Numbered from the stretch's first letter, positions 3,110 to 45,557 are shown. The stretch: 45,947 bases of DNA from an uncultured Bacteroidales bacterium (GCA_964472385.1 CAYYLT010000001.1:1-45947), one strand, 5' to 3'. A program made the numbers and translations. The notes: generated by a model not told the origin, from the letters alone.

Positions 3110-3152
3110 TTTTTTTTTTAATAAATACCCAATTAATTTAAGATGAATTTAA

Positions 3153-3319
3153 CTCGAATTATTTACGAATAATTCTAACACGCTTTAAAAATCTGGTTTT
3201 TTGCGAAATGTAATGAAGCAAAAAGCCAGATTTTTGTAATGCGGGGTTACCTGGATCCTTCCCAAAAACCAATACATAATCATAAATTTTGCTCTCCTCG
3301 TTTATGAATAATCCAGGTT
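3153..3319 (+). repeat. intergenic repeat, variant family (copy H1)
   Basis: Ends in ATGAATAATCCAGGTT, like the right TIR of the main family. Contains a 16-bp A/T-rich stem-loop (3187-3235) and the module ATGCGGGGTTACCTGGATCCTTCCCAAAA (3239-3268), both also present at 8343-8467. Confidence 0.55.
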
Positions 3320-3621
3320 CAAATTTCTTCCTGTTTAATATCCCCTAAGGCAGATGACCTTTTATAAATATCGTAGAACTAAAGTATTAATTCGTGTGTG
3401 TCTATAAAGCCCGACTTCTTGGTTGTTGCTCAAAATCTAAATCTTCAAATAGACAAGTTATTATGCGGTTTAGATTTTGAACACGCCTTGAACTTTACAG
3501 AACAAACAATAGCGTCTATAGACAGACTCTATAATTAGAGAGGCGGCAAAAGTATAATGATTTTTTATATTTTCATAATTTTTGGATTACAAATCCCCAA
3601 TCGGGCTTATATTTTTCACAT

Positions 3622-3754
3622 AAAAGTTAGAGACAAAAAGTTAGGGCCAGACGAAAAAGTTAGAAGAAAAGCTAGGGACAGACGCATAAAAAGTTAGGGA
3701 CAGACGCATGAAAAGTTTGAATGTTAAAGTTAATGAAAGTTAGGGACAGACGTG
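3622..3754. repeat. degenerate tandem array, 8 units of AAAAGTTAGGGACAGACG
   Basis: Four full units (3635, 3667, 3688, 3736) alternate with four short units carrying only the AAAGTTA core. Core spacing is 10-22 bp. The array ends 11 nt from the purS stop codon. Confidence 0.8.
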
Positions 3755-4929: not shown

Positions 4930-5105
4930 ACCCTGAAAAATTTGGCAATAAATATCGCAAAAATAAGTTAATTTTGTAAAGTCTGTCTATAATATCCGCT
5001 GGCTGTATTATGTTTGTTTTGAATACCAGTTGTTTATATTTAGTACATTCCTGGTATTCAAAATGCGCTGGATTTGCCATCGAATCTATCACAAGAAACT
5101 TTTTT

Positions 5106-5320
5106 CCTGTATGATGCATAAAAAATGAATAAGACCTTGTAAGCCGAAGAATATTAGCGTTTTGCTTATTTTTTTAAAAAAATGTTTTTGTGTAATGTTT
5201 TGCGCGTGCGTCAACTTTTAGGCATCTGCTACGTTGCGAAAGCACCGAAGTAGACAACTATGTTGTCGGCTTTCGACGCCTTGCACCTACTCAAAACTTG
5301 ACGCATGAATAATACAGGCT
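5106..5320 (+). repeat. intergenic repeat superfamily, type I (copy A)
   Basis: TIR CCTGTATGATGCA...TGAATAATACAGGCT; head module AAAAAATGAATAAGACCTTGTAA; A/T-rich module; hairpin 5207-5305. Alignable with the copies at 6453, 12481, 26932 and 45150. Confidence 0.85.
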
Positions 5321-6428: not shown

Positions 6429-6452
6429 CCTTACCTTGATATCTTTTTTGTT

Positions 6453-6670
6453 AACCTGTATTGTTCACAAAAAATGAATAAGCTTTTGTAAACCATAGAA
6501 TGATAGTATTTTGCTCATTTTATTTAAAAATTTTATTTTTATGCATTGTTTGCGCATGGGTCAATTTTCAGGCACCTGCTGCGTTGCGAAAGCCTCGTAC
6601 TAGGCGTCTAAGGCGTCGGCTTTCGGCACCTTGCATCTGCCAAAAAGATGACGCATGAATAATACTGGTT
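6453..6670 (+). repeat. intergenic repeat superfamily, type I (copy B)
   Basis: TIR AACCTGTATTGTTCA...TGAATAATACTGGTT; same module order as copy A; hairpin 6557-6655. Confidence 0.85.
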
Positions 6671-6679
6671 AAGATATTG

Positions 6680-7119: not shown

Positions 7120-7166
7120 ACCCAATTTCACCTGAACAATACGGTTCAATCAATTATGATACAAAC

Positions 7167-8342: not shown

Positions 8343-8467
8343 ATGAATGCGGGATGTTTTGGGAGGTGGATGCAGGCAACCCCGCATAAGAAAAACCTGC
8401 TTTTGCGAAAATTAATGAAGTAAAAAACCGGGTTTTTCAATAGCAACCTATTTCTGGATAATTCGGG
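8343..8467. repeat. intergenic repeat, variant family (copy H2)
   Basis: Shares the stem-loop (8391-8437) and the GGGGTTRCCTGSATCC module (8357-8387, inverted) with 3153-3319. Confidence 0.55.
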
Positions 8468-12463: not shown

Positions 12464-12480
12464 GTTTATCTATATTTCTT

Positions 12481-12700
12481 AGCCTGTATTGTTCATAAAA
12501 AATAAAAAAAAACATCTATAAACAAAAGAATATTAGTGCTTTACTTATCATGCTCAAAAAATTTTATTTTTATATATTTTTTCCGGGTGCGTCAATTTTG
12601 GGCATCTGCTACGTTGCGAAAGCCTTAATATAGTCGGCCAGGTCTTCGTCTTTCGGCGTTTTGCATCTGCTTAAAACCTGATGCATGAATAATATGGGTT
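12481..12700 (+). repeat. intergenic repeat superfamily, type I (copy C)
   Basis: TIR AGCCTGTATTGTTCA...TGAATAATATGGGTT; hairpin 12588-12685. Confidence 0.85.
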
Positions 12701-12862
12701 ATCAGGTTTATTGCCTTTCCATGCACAAAAATAATATTTATTGTATGAATTCTATACAAAGCTCAATCCACATTCACGTATTCAGGACAGGATATATAAG
12801 TCTCATATTTAATGCGTACCTGGAATTAAATGAAAGGGTCAGGGCAGTAATATATTTTGTAT

Positions 12863-16400: not shown

Positions 16401-19400
16401 CGGAGTCACGATGGGGAGGAATTATGCGGGAGATATCCACTACGGATTTTGAAGAATCCAATGTGGAATATATTGAATTCTGGCTGATGGATCCTTTTGT
16501 TTATGATACCCTAAACCAGAATGAGGGTAACTTATATTTTAACCTGGGTAATGTTTCGGAAGATATACTGAGAGATTCCAGGAAAAGTTTTGAAAACGGG
16601 TTACCTGCTTCACAGCAGGATGGTATGGTAGATTCCACCAGTTGGGGACGTATCCCGCTGTCTCAATCCCTGGTCAATGCTTTTGATAATGACCCGAAAG
16701 CGCGCAGATATCAGGATGTGGGTTTGGATGGTATAGATAATGAGGATGAGCAGTCTTATTTCGATGATTATCTTAATGCCCTGGAAGAAATACTTTCTCC
16801 CGAAGCTTACCAGAAATATGCAGAAGATCCTTCTCAGGATGATTACCATTATTACCGGGGTAAGGATTATGATAGAGAAAAGCGGGGTATCATAGAGCGA
16901 TACAAGAAATACAACGGAATGGAGGGCAACTCGCCCACTTCTGAACAGTCACCCGAACCCTATCCAACATCCGGAAAAACCCTTCCCGACGTGGAAGATA
17001 TCAACCAGGACAACACCCTGGAGGAAAATGAGAGTTATTATCAGTATCAGGTTGAGCTGGCTCCCCGTAAGATGAAGGTGGGGGAGAATTTTATCGCCGA
17101 TAAGGTTACCAGAAAAGTAGAGTTAGCCAATGGTAAAAAGTCTGAAGTCGACTGGTACCAGTTTAAGATACCTGTCAGAAAACCCGACAAGCGGGTAGGG
17201 GGGATCCGTGATTTTAAATCCATCCGGTTTATGCGTATGTTTCTCAGAGGATTTGAAGACTCTACCATTCTGAGATTTGCTAAATTAAATCTGGTTCGCG
17301 GTGAATGGCGAAAATATACGCAATCGTTGTATGAAGGGGGTGAAAATCTTTCAGCCCCGGAGTACAGTAGTGGTTCCATGAGCATATCAGCAGTGAATAT
17401 TGAGGAGAATGCCAATAAAACACCGGTGAATTATGTATTACCCCCGGGCATAGACCGGGTTATAGATCCAACCAATCCTCAATTGCGGCAGCTTAACGAA
17501 CAGGCTATTGTTTTCAAGGTAGAGAATCTTGAGGATGGGGATGCCCGGGCTGCTTTCAAGAAAGTAGGTATGGATATCCGTCAATATAAAAAGCTGCGCA
17601 TGTTTGTTCATACGGAAGCATTGGAGAACAAAATTCTGAATGACGGTGATCTGCGTGTTTTTGTTCGCCTTGGAACCGATTACCGGGATAATTATTATGA
17701 ATACGAGATACCACTAGATGTCACCCCTCCTGGTTTCTACAACAATAATAACGGCAGTGAGCGCAGGCAGGTATGGAAGAATGAGATGGTCATTAATCTG
17801 GATGATTTGCCTGCATTGAAATTGCAGCGGAATCAGGCCATGAGAGGGAGCAATTCCAATATTACCATGAATACCATTTACAGGATTATCAGGGATCAGG
17901 TGGAACTTAGTGTAAGGGGAAACCCGAATTTGAGCGATATAAGGACCATTATGATGGGTGTAAAAAATCCTGATCAGCAGGATAATACCCTTTCCCGTGA
18001 TGATGGTATGCCTAAATCCGGAGAAATTTGGCTTAATGAGCTCCGGCTTGCCGATTTTAGGGAAAAAGGGGGTTGGGCTGCCAGGGGAAGGGTTTCGACC
18101 CAGCTGGCCGATCTGGGAAGGATCAATCTTTCTGGTAATATCAGTACTCCCGGCTTTGGCAGTATTGATAAAAAAGTTAATCAGCGAAACAAAGAAGAAA
18201 CGGCACAATACGATCTGTCTACCAATCTTGACCTGGGGCAGTTTTTCCCTGAACAAACAGGGGTAAAAATCCCTTTATATCTGGGTTATTCCGAGAGGTT
18301 TATCACTCCTCAGTATAATCCGCTTAATCCGGATATTAAGTTAGATAACGCCCTTGATGCTGCTCAAAATAGCCGTGCACGCGATTCGCTGAAGAACATA
18401 ACCCAGGATTATGTGCGCAGAAGAAGCCTCAATTTCAACAATATCTCCATTTCTCCCCAGCAACAAAGTGCTCCCCCATTTTATGATATTTCCAATTTTG
18501 CCCTGAACTATTCCTACAATGAGTTTTTTGCCAGGAACATCAACACAAAATATAATATTTCCAAAGAATACAGTGGTGGGCTGGTATACAATTTCAGCAC
18601 CCAGCCAGAACCCATAACTCCATTTCAGAATGCCGGAGGTATTTTGGATTCAGAATTGTTCCGCATTATTAAAGATTTTAACTTCAATTACTATCCTTCC
18701 TCCATAACCTTCAGATCAAACTTGCGACGCTCATACAACGCCATGCAGCACCGTAATATCTCTACACCAGGTATAAGATATCCGGCCAGCTACGATAAAA
18801 ATTTCCTTTGGAACCGGAATTATAATGTACAGTTCGACCTCACCCGTTCCCTCAAGCTTGATTTCAATGCTACCAACCGTGCCCGTATTGATGAACCGCA
18901 AGGTCAGGTTAATAAGCAAAAAGCTCCGGCATTATATGATGAATGGCGAAAAACCGTGATATCTAACATCAAAGATTTAGGGCGGAATACCGATTACCGC
19001 CATGCCTGGAATGCCAGATACAGGGTGCCCGTGAATAAGTTGCCCTTGCTCGACTGGGTGAATGTTTCTTCAAGTTATCAAGGTAACTATAACTGGAATG
19101 CAGGACCGATATTGGCTGAAGAAGACAGTACCGAGCTGGGCAACACCATCCGTAATTCCAATACCATTCAACTAAACAGCCAGTTAAATTTCAATAACCT
19201 TTATAATAAAGTAGGTTTTCTGAAGCGAATCAATCAAAAATCACAGGGGAGAGAGCAGAAGACGCAATATGAAACGGTAAATTACAGTGAGGAGGAGGTG
19301 GCATTTGAAGCCGATGAGCCCAGGCGCATCGCACATAACCTGATGACGGAGAATGTACAGGTTGAAGTTTACGACAATCAGGGCAGAACCATTGACGGTA

Positions 19401-21477: not shown

Positions 21478-21688
21478 GGGTTTTTTGAAAAAGTCTGTAG
21501 CACATCAGCTATTAGGTGGCAAAGCAAAGCCCCGAAAGCCGGCGACGTAGTCGCCGGCTTTCGGGGCTTTGTATATGCATGAAATTTGATGCACGCGTAA
21601 AAAATGTATAAAAACAACATGTTTTGAATAAAACATGCAAAATTCTGATATTTTTCCGGTTACAAAAGCTTATTCATTTTTTGTGAAT
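21478..21688 (-). repeat. intergenic repeat superfamily, chimeric copy D
   Basis: On the minus strand it reads: type-I head (ATTCACAAAAAATGAATAAGCTTTTGTAA), A/T module, start of the type-I left arm (GCGTGCATCAAATTTCATGC), a perfect palindrome, then a type-II tail (GCTTTGCCACCTAATAGCTGATGTGCTACAGACTTTTTCA). Confidence 0.75.
21526..21570. terminator. bidirectional intrinsic terminator candidate between convergent gcvH and infB
   Basis: Perfect 21-bp stem AAAGCCCCGAAAGCCGGCGAC / GTCGCCGGCTTTCGGGGCTTT with a 3-nt loop, followed by T-containing tracts on both strands. Confidence 0.7.
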
Positions 21689-26773: not shown

Positions 26774-26931
26774 GAAATAATTCAATTAATGAGCAAATTT
26801 TATTCATTTTCTTTAATATCAATTATAAAAGGAGGTTTTTTCAAATCATTCTGGCTTTATGGACAAAAAACGCTAATGAGAACCTTCCCAGCCGTTGAAC
26901 GATTTTTTATTACATTTGGGCTGCTTATCTT

Positions 26932-27147
26932 CCCTGTGTTATGAACAAAAAAGGAATAAAGGTTATAAGCTATAGAATATGAGCGGTTTGTGTATTTTAT
27001 TCGAAAAATATTATTTTTATACATTTTTTGAAAGTGCGTTATTTTTTGGCCTCTGCTGCATTGTAAAAGCCTCGAAGTGGGCGGCTACTTCATCGGTTTT
27101 CGGCGCCTTGCATCTACCCAAAACTTAACGCATGAATAATACAGGCT
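26932..27147 (+). repeat. intergenic repeat superfamily, type I (copy E)
   Basis: TIR CCCTGTGTTATGAAC...TGAATAATACAGGCT; hairpin 27035-27132; ends 15 nt before the ATG at 27163. Confidence 0.8.
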
Positions 27148-27162
27148 AAAAAGCATATAATT

Positions 27163-39668: not shown

Positions 39669-39901
39669 GGGTTTGCTGAAAAACACAAAAAAGCTTTAAA
39701 ATCAACAGGATATACATTTATATTGTTTCTGAAATGCAAGGATTTTAGTAAATATACCTAAAAAACCTTGCATTTTTCAAGTGAATATTTTTTGTTAGCC
39801 TTTAGCACATCATCTACTTCGTTGGCTTCAGCTCGCAGTATTCATATACAGCTTCGCTTTGCCGCCTCGTAGCTGATGCACTAAAGACTTTTTCAGCAAA
39901 C
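39669..39901 (+). repeat. intergenic repeat superfamily, type II (copy F)
   Basis: 13-bp TIR GTTTGCTGAAAAA...TTTTTCAGCAAAC; head related to the type-I head; hairpins 39731-39776 and 39800-39886; tail about 80 percent alike by eye to the copy D tail. Confidence 0.75.
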
Positions 39902-45029: not shown

Positions 45030-45149
45030 GACAGATTGATGTTAATAACCCATTTTACCATGGGTGAATTCGTTCGCTGTTTGCTGAATTTGCCCACATG
45101 TATACAAAAATATTCTAAAAATCTCAAAAAGCAAACGACAACAAGATCT

Positions 45150-45341
45150 AGCCTGTATTATTCACAAAAAATGAATAAACCTTTGTAAATATAAGGATAT
45201 AAGCACTTTACTTGTTTTTTTAAAATAATTTTTATTATAGGCATTTTTTGTGTTTTTCAGTAGTCCCGAAGTAGGCGATTACATCGTTTGCTTTCGACGC
45301 CTTGCATCTACCCAGAACTTGACGCATGAATAAGACAGGCT
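45150..45341 (+). repeat. intergenic repeat superfamily, type I, truncated (copy G)
   Basis: Best-preserved TIR AGCCTGTATTATTCA...TGAATAAGACAGGCT. Head, apex and right arm are present, but the left hairpin arm is missing. Confidence 0.8.
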
Positions 45342-45557
45342 ATATTTATGATCTTCAAAGGTAGCCGGGCCATAAAGCAATCGAACACCAATGAGCCTGT
45401 AGCCGGAGAAAAAAATATTCACACACTAAAACAGTCCAGTCATTATTGGAAATGCATAGGAGATCACTGATAAAAGAAGATCAGGGCTCATTTTGGAAAG
45501 TTAAAATATGATGGAATGAAAAAATATTCGAACCAACCCTTTCTCTGAAAAGTGTCT

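Follow-up and report, generated by a model that had tools for sequence, protein, structure and literature searches.

What are the repeats that take up most of the long intergenic gaps in this stretch of DNA, and how did they come to be there? The stretch, which we call the window throughout, comprises 45,947 nt from an uncultured Bacteroidales bacterium. Its sequence is that of the JGI metagenome contig Ga0153774_1000213 and is present in microbial-mat assemblies too. The genes around the repeats are ordinary chromosomal genes of Bacteroidota, among them rpsL/rpsG/fusA, a PorV-like gene, a glutaminyl cyclase gene and a gene for an aspartase-type lyase; ruvA, sprA, gcvH, infB-nusA-rimP, a gene for an HD-domain protein, lpxD, lpxC-fabZ, lpxA and suf genes are found in the window as well. 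An initial annotation, made from the sequence alone, had described the repeats as a MITE-like, mobile intergenic repeat superfamily with terminal inverted repeats (TIRs), occupying 9 of the intergenic gaps longer than 150 bp. Counting from the ORF map, we likewise find 9 of 12-13 such gaps occupied, corresponding to about 4% of the window, and the analysis presented here supports the proposed superfamily more strongly than the annotation itself could show. In our assessment the repeats are very probably a family of non-autonomous DNA transposons (MITEs) of about 215 bp that belongs to uncultured Bacteroidales.

A direct-repeat search and an nhmmer profile built from the four full window copies both recovered the repeat in the window as four full copies and a truncated one, with nhmmer E values of 1e-64 to 1e-68 for the full copies and 6e-34 for the truncated copy at 45152-45339. 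These are the five plus-strand copies that had been claimed before; with the limits drawn from the left-end CCTG to the right-end CAGG, they deviate by at most 2 nt from the earlier coordinates (Table 1), and the proposed module order of TIR, head, A/T module, hairpin and TIR is seen in the alignments. The identity between full copies had been estimated by eye at 75-85%, and the computed pairwise value is 70-75%. The copies measure 188-217 bp, within the range of about 50-800 bp expected of a MITE; their longest stop-free stretches, of 38-58 codons, show no conservation, and the repeat is non-coding. Two further stretches had been listed as variant copies. The one at 21478-21688 on the minus strand does carry the family interior (model positions 14-205, E 7e-31), but its right end is that of another repeat, and the one at 39669-39901 turned out to be a member of this separate repeat family, which has copies of its own (L073, L016/L029, L091 and L027; loci outside the window are referred to by L numbers). 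Two elements had been regarded as related to the family: 3153-3319 indeed has a degenerate form of the same TIR, but 8343-8467 shares only a hairpin of about 49 nt with 3153-3319.

Table 1. Parts of the focal copy and other elements of the family in the window (positions counted from the first nucleotide of the window).
Feature	Position	Strand	Remarks
Target-site duplication on the left of the focal copy, TTTT, decayed (CTAA on the right)	5102..5105	+	Duplication rule set on fresher copies
Left TIR CCTGTATGATGCA, consensus CCTG[C/A/T]ATTATTCA; 5' arm of closing stem P1	5106..5118	+	
Former "head module" TAAAAAATGAATAAG, 5' arm of stem P2	5119..5133	+	Covaries with the 3' arm between subfamilies
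A/T-rich loop of P2, lowest conservation of the element	5134..5184	+	From per-column conservation
End of the former "promoter-like A/T module", TTTTTGTGTAATGTTTTG, degenerate 3' arm of P2	5185..5202	+	
Long imperfect hairpin P3, about 100 nt; GCATCTGC invariant in both arms, apex variable	5206..5305	+	
Right TIR TGAATAATACAGG, 3' arm of P1	5306..5318	+	
Right target-site duplication CTAA	5319..5322	+	
Full copy 6455-6668 with duplication	6451..6672	+	TTAA/TTAA, intact; in the gap from the PorV-like gene to the next; a conserved TATCTTTG box lies just downstream of the copy
Full copy 12483-12698 with flanks	12479..12702	+	TTAG/TTAT; the divergent aspartase-like gene has its start codon 14-19 nt from the left end
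Full copy 26933-27145 with flanks	26929..27149	+	CTTC/CTAA; inserted upstream of the HD-domain gene, with a TACATTTG box on one side and the ATG on the other; orthologous copy in L021
Truncated copy 45152-45339 with flanks	45148..45343	+	CTAG/CTAT; left arm of P3 deleted; between two minus-strand genes (SLT/LysM, TatA-like)
Chimera: family interior (P2 and part of P3) without family TIRs, fused to a right end of the 39669 type	21478..21688	-	
Decayed element, TIRs of the same type (CCTGGATTATTCA) around another interior; other member of the TIR superfamily	3153..3319	-	

The ends of the element provide the first argument for mobility. Alignment of all copies that have both ends defines TIRs of 13 bp, where a MITE should have at least 10-15 bp; they read CCTG(C/A/T)ATTATTCA on the left and TGAATAAT(G/T/A)CAGG on the right, and in most copies outside the window the two differ by no more than one mismatch. 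Directly outside the TIRs lies a 4-bp direct repeat, which is perfect in about 25 of the 30 fresher copies with both ends on other contigs. It reads TTAA, TTAG or CTAA (seven times each), or else GTAA, TTAT, TTTA or ATAG, giving the consensus YTAR, with the first three sequences making up about 21 of the 26 informative duplications. Since the repeat varies between copies and yet matches on both sides of each, it represents a true target-site duplication and not a fixed flanking motif. The initial annotation had seen no clear duplication, because those of the window copies are mostly eroded, that of 6455-6668 being the only intact one (Table 1); the window alone, where the duplications are mostly imperfect, would not prove transposition. 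Models with a duplication of TA or of 3 bp were tried as well, and the 4-bp model fits best. A TA duplication of the Correia/RUP type (IS630-mobilised) was rejected in particular because flank positions 1 and 4 are duplicated too, as in GTAA/GTAA, TTAT/TTAT and CTAA/CTAA. The same TIR also encloses other interiors, including that of 3153-3319 in the window; elements with this TIR thus form a TIR superfamily.

A mobile element should also leave occupied and unoccupied sites in related genomes. In the first MAG loci no orthologues of the window genes were found, and syntenic contigs were reached by way of proteins homologous to RuvA and to the HD-domain protein. Two relatives with about 75% protein identity (L022/L025 and L024/L026) show the same gene order and lack every copy examined, their gaps being shorter by approximately the length of the element: the gap from rimP to the HD-domain gene measures 253 and 245 nt in these two empty relatives versus 481 nt in the window, and the gap from the PorV-like gene to the next gene 54 and 61 nt versus 277 nt. 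In a relative with 92% DNA identity (L027/L028) the copies at 5106, 6455 and 12483 are missing, and 37, 12 and 42 nt, respectively, stand in their place. At two of these three sites fragments of the TIRs are still recognisable, namely TTAA-CCTTTATCAATATAGAAG-TTTAA at the 6455 site and TGTATTATTGAATCATAAGGCATGATAATGTG, a left TIR joined to a right TIR, at the 12483 site. These remnants imply that at least three of the window copies are older than the split from this relative and that their palindromic interiors were later deleted there. A similar remnant is seen at L018:122-146, where TTAA-CCTGAATTATTCAGG-TTAA contains a 15-bp perfect palindrome (CCTGAATTATTCAGG) and appears to be what is left, TIR to TIR, of an element that was almost wholly deleted. 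In a further contig with 89-93% DNA identity (L021) the orthologous copy upstream of the HD-domain gene has been kept, with a different apex. The window copies are thus old and decaying, being 70-75% identical to each other with mostly eroded duplications. They differ by 25-30%, while the host and L027 differ by 8%, and this requires either old insertions or several diverged source copies. Both filled and empty orthologous sites and copies at non-homologous sites were found, which is the pattern by which a MITE is recognised.

The family is not restricted to the window, an outcome that by the initial annotation's own terms would have refuted its reading, but comprises more than 60 copies across several Bacteroidales MAGs and metagenomes, some of them 93-97% identical. 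Species-representative genomes were scanned with a pattern taken from the right hairpin arm; among the matches listed, at least nine contigs of the MAG CAZBJH01 ("uncultured Bacteroidales") and contigs of two other Bacteroidales/Bacteroidota MAGs carry the element. In metagenomes, a second and independent pattern, taken from the left arm, matched 76 stretches, in which nhmmer detected 31 full-length and about 25 partial copies. Many of these stretches lie at contig ends, as expected of repeats that break assemblies. Copies at unrelated sites of CAZBJH01 are 93-97% identical, which points to recent activity. Two short contigs with this Bacteroidales element have been binned with other phyla, L010 (JAWLEA010000209.1) with Polyangia and L019 (WJLJ01000009.1) with Dependentiae. 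Mis-binning probably explains these two cases better than horizontal spread. For metagenomics the family is therefore of practical interest in two ways, as a cause of broken assemblies and as a flag for contigs that are probably mis-binned; it is also a marker for one lineage of uncultured Bacteroidales sampled from mats and sediments.

In agreement with the initial annotation, which did not recognise the repeat as any named family, no Rfam family or named repeat was matched. Rfam searches over the window at the gathering score gave no match, and at permissive thresholds the window and the intact copies gave chance-level matches alone (E above 0.2). A BLAST search of a plasmid collection and a scan of viral contigs yielded nothing relevant, and a search of the literature for the TIR strings returned no paper containing them. 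As far as such a string search reaches, this is a genuine and previously uncharacterised MITE family.

How might such an element move? The element inserts at 4-bp YTAR sites (TTAA, TTAG, CTAA), and the target is duplicated, in keeping with a staggered cut; this cut would be made by a DDE-type transposase supplied in trans, the element itself encoding nothing. Double-strand cut-and-paste transposases need TIRs only. Besides IS5, other IS families such as IS1380 also make 4-bp duplications and could be the source. The duplications of IS5 are 4 bp long and follow 5'-YTAR-3' (PMC5009759), a property that the present family shares, and on the basis of this target motif an IS5-like partner may be assumed. 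On the other hand, the ends of our element are CC...GG, unlike those of IS5, and the loci examined contained no IS5-family transposase, no IS5-type DDE ORF and no IS with these TIRs.

The search for a partner gave the following picture. No transposase is encoded within the window, just as the initial annotation had stated. Long-range TIR pairs, solo TIRs near ORFs and DDE_Tnp_1 proteins were examined in about 0.78 Mb of loci, and none of them revealed an autonomous element with the same TIRs; regular-expression and profile scans of all loci for other DDE transposases were negative as well. The long-range TIR pairs in L012, L017 and L018 enclose unrelated or housekeeping DNA. One candidate, the only transposase found beside a copy, seemed promising at first sight: in L043 and L105 the end of a DDE_Tnp_1 transposase is followed, 80 nt further on, by a hairpin and right TIR of the family. 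It was rejected as a partner, because it has 17-bp TIRs of its own (TACTACTGATGCGTTAA) and is nested in a copy. It is an IS of the IS4 family (L043:94-1077 and L105:172-1480) with a transposase of 388 aa (DUF4372 and DDE_Tnp_1), which sits in the A/T loop of a MITE copy with an apparent duplication of about 8-9 bp of AATTTAAAT. This transposase has many close relatives (at least 75% identity) across Bacteroidota and in other metagenomes.

A long imperfect palindrome with a strand-asymmetric fold (see below) could also recall a different class of elements, namely REP/REPIN palindromes moved by a RAYT or palindromic elements derived from IS200/IS605 and moved as single-stranded DNA. These systems make no target-site duplication, have no TIRs and are associated with a Y1 transposase. 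An ORF fragment of 72 aa (…NITNRCHQKGHLLKF…SNYIHLL…) is found at L017:1882-2100, 165 nt from a copy, and might be taken for part of a Y1 transposase of the IS200/RAYT type; however, it gave no significant Pfam match, and we dismissed it as a RAYT fragment. Moreover, no such gene is present in the window or recurs beside copies, and the TIRs and the variable 4-bp duplication, both clear here, are foreign to those systems. We consider a REP-like or IS200/IS605-like origin extremely unlikely, and a MITE that is moved by a transposase acting on its TIRs remains our preferred reading.

The element has, in addition, a structure that goes beyond its termini. Whole-element folding shows that a single strand folds into a three-way junction: P1 is formed by the two TIRs, P2 by the head together with the end of the A/T module, closing an A/T loop of about 50 nt, and P3 is the imperfect hairpin of about 100 nt that had been noticed initially and is confirmed at 5206..5305. 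What had been taken for a promoter-like A/T module needs to be reinterpreted, since the stretch ending in TTTTTATACATTTTTTG forms one side of a stem, the 3' arm; its partner is the "head module" AAAAAATGAATAA, with which it covaries between subfamilies. In an alignment of 34 unique full-length copies the two arms of P2 change together: two subfamilies combine AAAAATGAATGA with TCATTCATTTTT, and a third combines AAAAAGCAAACA with TGTTTGCTTTTT; this amounts to four compensatory pairs (TGAATGA/TCATTCA versus GCAAACA/TGTTTGC). P2 is weak in the copies of the window, which have decayed. A fresh copy reaches an RNA folding energy of -79.3 kcal/mol (z -8.5) for the bottom strand and -67.8 (z -7.4) for the top strand, or -43.4 and -37.7, respectively, with DNA parameters. 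For P1 and P3 together, 97.1% of the pair cells are standard when read on the bottom strand, and 12 of the 45 pairs have changed on both sides. Their covariation score of 0.249 compares with 0.145 in shuffles, none of 500 reaching the observed value, and with at most 0.066 when the partners are slid. At the base of P3 the pairing sequences switch from GCGCCAA/TTGACGC to GCTTTTA/TAAAAGC between subfamilies, and at TIR position 5 only C/G, A/T, T/A or the bottom-strand wobble combination is seen. All three helices covary, the TIR stem included. The highest conservation falls in the internal-loop region, where GCATCTGC is present on both arms and gives tandem G·A pairs on the bottom strand; GCATCTGC is conserved in whichever arm supplied no search pattern.

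The reinterpretation of the A/T module bears directly on the question whether the repeat serves the host, as a regulatory cassette upstream of genes that would be either a mobile promoter with a 5'-UTR hairpin or a shared cis-regulatory leader. The window alone would be compatible with such a role: all four full copies point to a downstream plus-strand gene, three of them stop 21-37 nt short of its ATG, and copy 12483-12698 ends about 190 nt before the downstream ATG. The promoter consensus of Bacteroidetes is TAnnTTTG, and judging from it, copy 26933-27145, which lies between a TACATTTG box of this type and the ATG, is probably transcribed within the 5' UTR; its flanks total 27 nt, versus 26 nt in the empty relatives. 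Copy 6455-6668, in turn, adjoins the conserved TATCTTTG box. This arrangement does not hold for the larger set. Of 32 independently found copies for which both neighbouring genes could be called, 12 lie in divergent, eight in tandem co-oriented, five in tandem anti-oriented and seven in convergent contexts, and nine copies (in L098, L050, L075, L030, L103, L051, L087, L096 and L044) run over the stop codon of an adjacent ORF, with an overlap of 3-9 nt. As neither orientation nor position with respect to genes follows a consistent pattern, a promoter role finds no support as a family property, and neither it nor a leader role is one. Furthermore, the "promoter" segment is a stem arm whose sequence changes between subfamilies while the pairing is kept, the same housekeeping genes are expressed in relatives that lack the element, and Rfam gave no match. 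We therefore judge a regulatory cassette to be very unlikely. A terminator was considered and rejected too, as no U-run follows the hairpin on either strand in the sequence. The effects of the MITE copies on genes are incidental and differ by copy, one being in a 5' UTR, one at a promoter box and many elsewhere on stop codons. YTAR contains TAA and TAG, and where a copy sits exactly on a stop codon, the duplication regenerates it. The family illustrates how insertions come to lie in 5' UTRs, at promoter boxes and on stop codons with the genes left intact.

More difficult to accommodate is the observation that pairing is not kept equally well on the two strands. Across the pairs of P1 and P3, G·U occurs on the bottom strand in 172 pair cells and A·C, the state that would be a wobble on the top strand, in 21, although the copies are related by descent and such cell counts overstate the number of independent wobble events. 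At 12 pair positions a bottom-strand G·U recurs in three copies or more, whereas no position shows A·C that often; changes seen in a single copy are nearly symmetric (25 versus 18 positions). Of 53 unique hairpins, 49 are more stable as the bottom strand, the mean energies being -40.7 kcal/mol for the bottom and -30.2 kcal/mol for the top strand, and the asymmetry is also obtained with DNA folding parameters. The switches from C-G to U-A go via bottom-strand U·G intermediates (pairs 5/218, 51/77 and 17/111), and the invariant GCAGAUGC motif of P3 can form its tandem G·A pairs on the bottom strand, the top strand having U·C mismatches instead. The recently active copies of CAZBJH01 have a hybrid TIR (left C, right A) that corresponds to the bottom-strand wobble form of TIR position 5. 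Changes that define lineages therefore respect the pairing of one strand, while decay after insertion does not. This suggests a strand-specific single-stranded stage, of ssDNA or RNA, in the propagation of the element.

Taken further, the asymmetry could mean that the mobile element spreads via its folded bottom strand, as an ssDNA or RNA copy in the form of the three-way junction, with the TIRs acting as one paired stem instead of as two separate binding sites in double-stranded DNA. Covariation of P2 and P3 and the one-strand wobbles are left unexplained by double-strand cut-and-paste, and in this respect they count against a plain MITE. However, a variable 4-bp duplication together with TIRs is the signature of ordinary double-stranded DDE transposition, and a mutational bias in a few source copies might produce a similar asymmetry. 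The genomic context gives no hint either: orientation relative to GC skew (18 versus 12, p 0.36) reveals no significant replication-strand bias, and relative to flanking transcription the copies divide 8 versus 5 where the genes are in tandem and 5 versus 4 where a copy sits at a stop codon, so that neither replication nor transcription context accounts for the strand asymmetry. Propagation via a folded strand is thus, in our opinion, a rather unlikely alternative to the conventional MITE. MITEs as such are an ordinary and known kind of element; what goes beyond the ordinary here is that all helices covary and that the wobbles are confined to one strand. If this one-strand covariation reflects mobilisation, an element with TIRs and a target-site duplication would pass through a single-stranded step in which its structure is read. 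To our knowledge, a structure-dependent and strand-specific step combined with a DDE-like 4-bp duplication has not been described.

How does the family compare with known systems? Correia elements of Neisseria, ERIC of enterobacteria and RUP of pneumococci are small MITEs bounded by TIRs. With these the present family has in common a size of 100-250 bp, the lack of coding capacity, the TIRs, the dense intergenic distribution and a strong hairpin fold of the whole element; copies in transcribed regions near genes, with effects on neighbours that are specific to each copy; and decay along with presence/absence differences between close strains. It differs from them by the absence of sequence similarity, by a duplication of 4-bp YTAR rather than TA, by the three-way junction with a second covarying stem and one-strand wobbles across subfamilies, and by its uncultured Bacteroidales host. 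A purely functional analogy can also be drawn to the attC sites of integrons and to other recombination sites that are used as folded single strands, which are imperfect palindromes with one strand apparently under constraint, as seems to be the case here. Our element is not a member of that class, though, as there is no integrase and no R/L box consensus, and TIRs and a duplication are present. Bacterial MITEs have been reviewed (PMC10969869; see also PMC3184786), and MITEs are known from the same phylum in Porphyromonas gingivalis (PMC4596501, PMC2575886). A bulk catalogue of prokaryotic MITEs is available, and Bacteroidota genomes have been reported to be rich in MITEs (PMC11602168). The main use of the family is in annotation, where it accounts for most of the long intergenic gaps of this genome.

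Several other repeats and loci were noted along the way. The gap between rpsL and purS contains a short tandem array at 3622-3717, in which AAAAGTTAGGGACAGACGCATA is repeated about 2.3 times and preceded by less exact copies. Another family of MITE-like elements, the second, has ends of the type GTGTCTGT...ACAGACAC and is represented at 3380-3536 in the window, at L027:2531-2688 and at about L017:2235-2375; the copy in L027 (82% identical) lies downstream of the 6455 site, at a position that is empty in the window. L027 also carries a 170-bp insertion at 3112-3281, between the gene for a 137-aa protein and that for the glutaminyl cyclase, which the window lacks at the corresponding positions 7124-7146. 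The hairpin of about 49 nt mentioned above (AAAAAYCTGG...TTGCGAAA...CCRGRTTTTT) is common to 3185-3240 and 8388-8440 in the window, the two being about 80% identical. Finally, members of the third repeat family, to which 39669-39901 belongs, are 79-89% identical and were found at L073:6195-6437, L016:107-332, L091:9-132 and L027:8535-8620 and 17300-17398. It is the right end of this family (...GCCGCCTCGTAGCTGATGCACTAAAGACTTTTTCA) that is fused to the chimera at 21478-21688, and in the window both of these elements lie in gaps between convergent genes.
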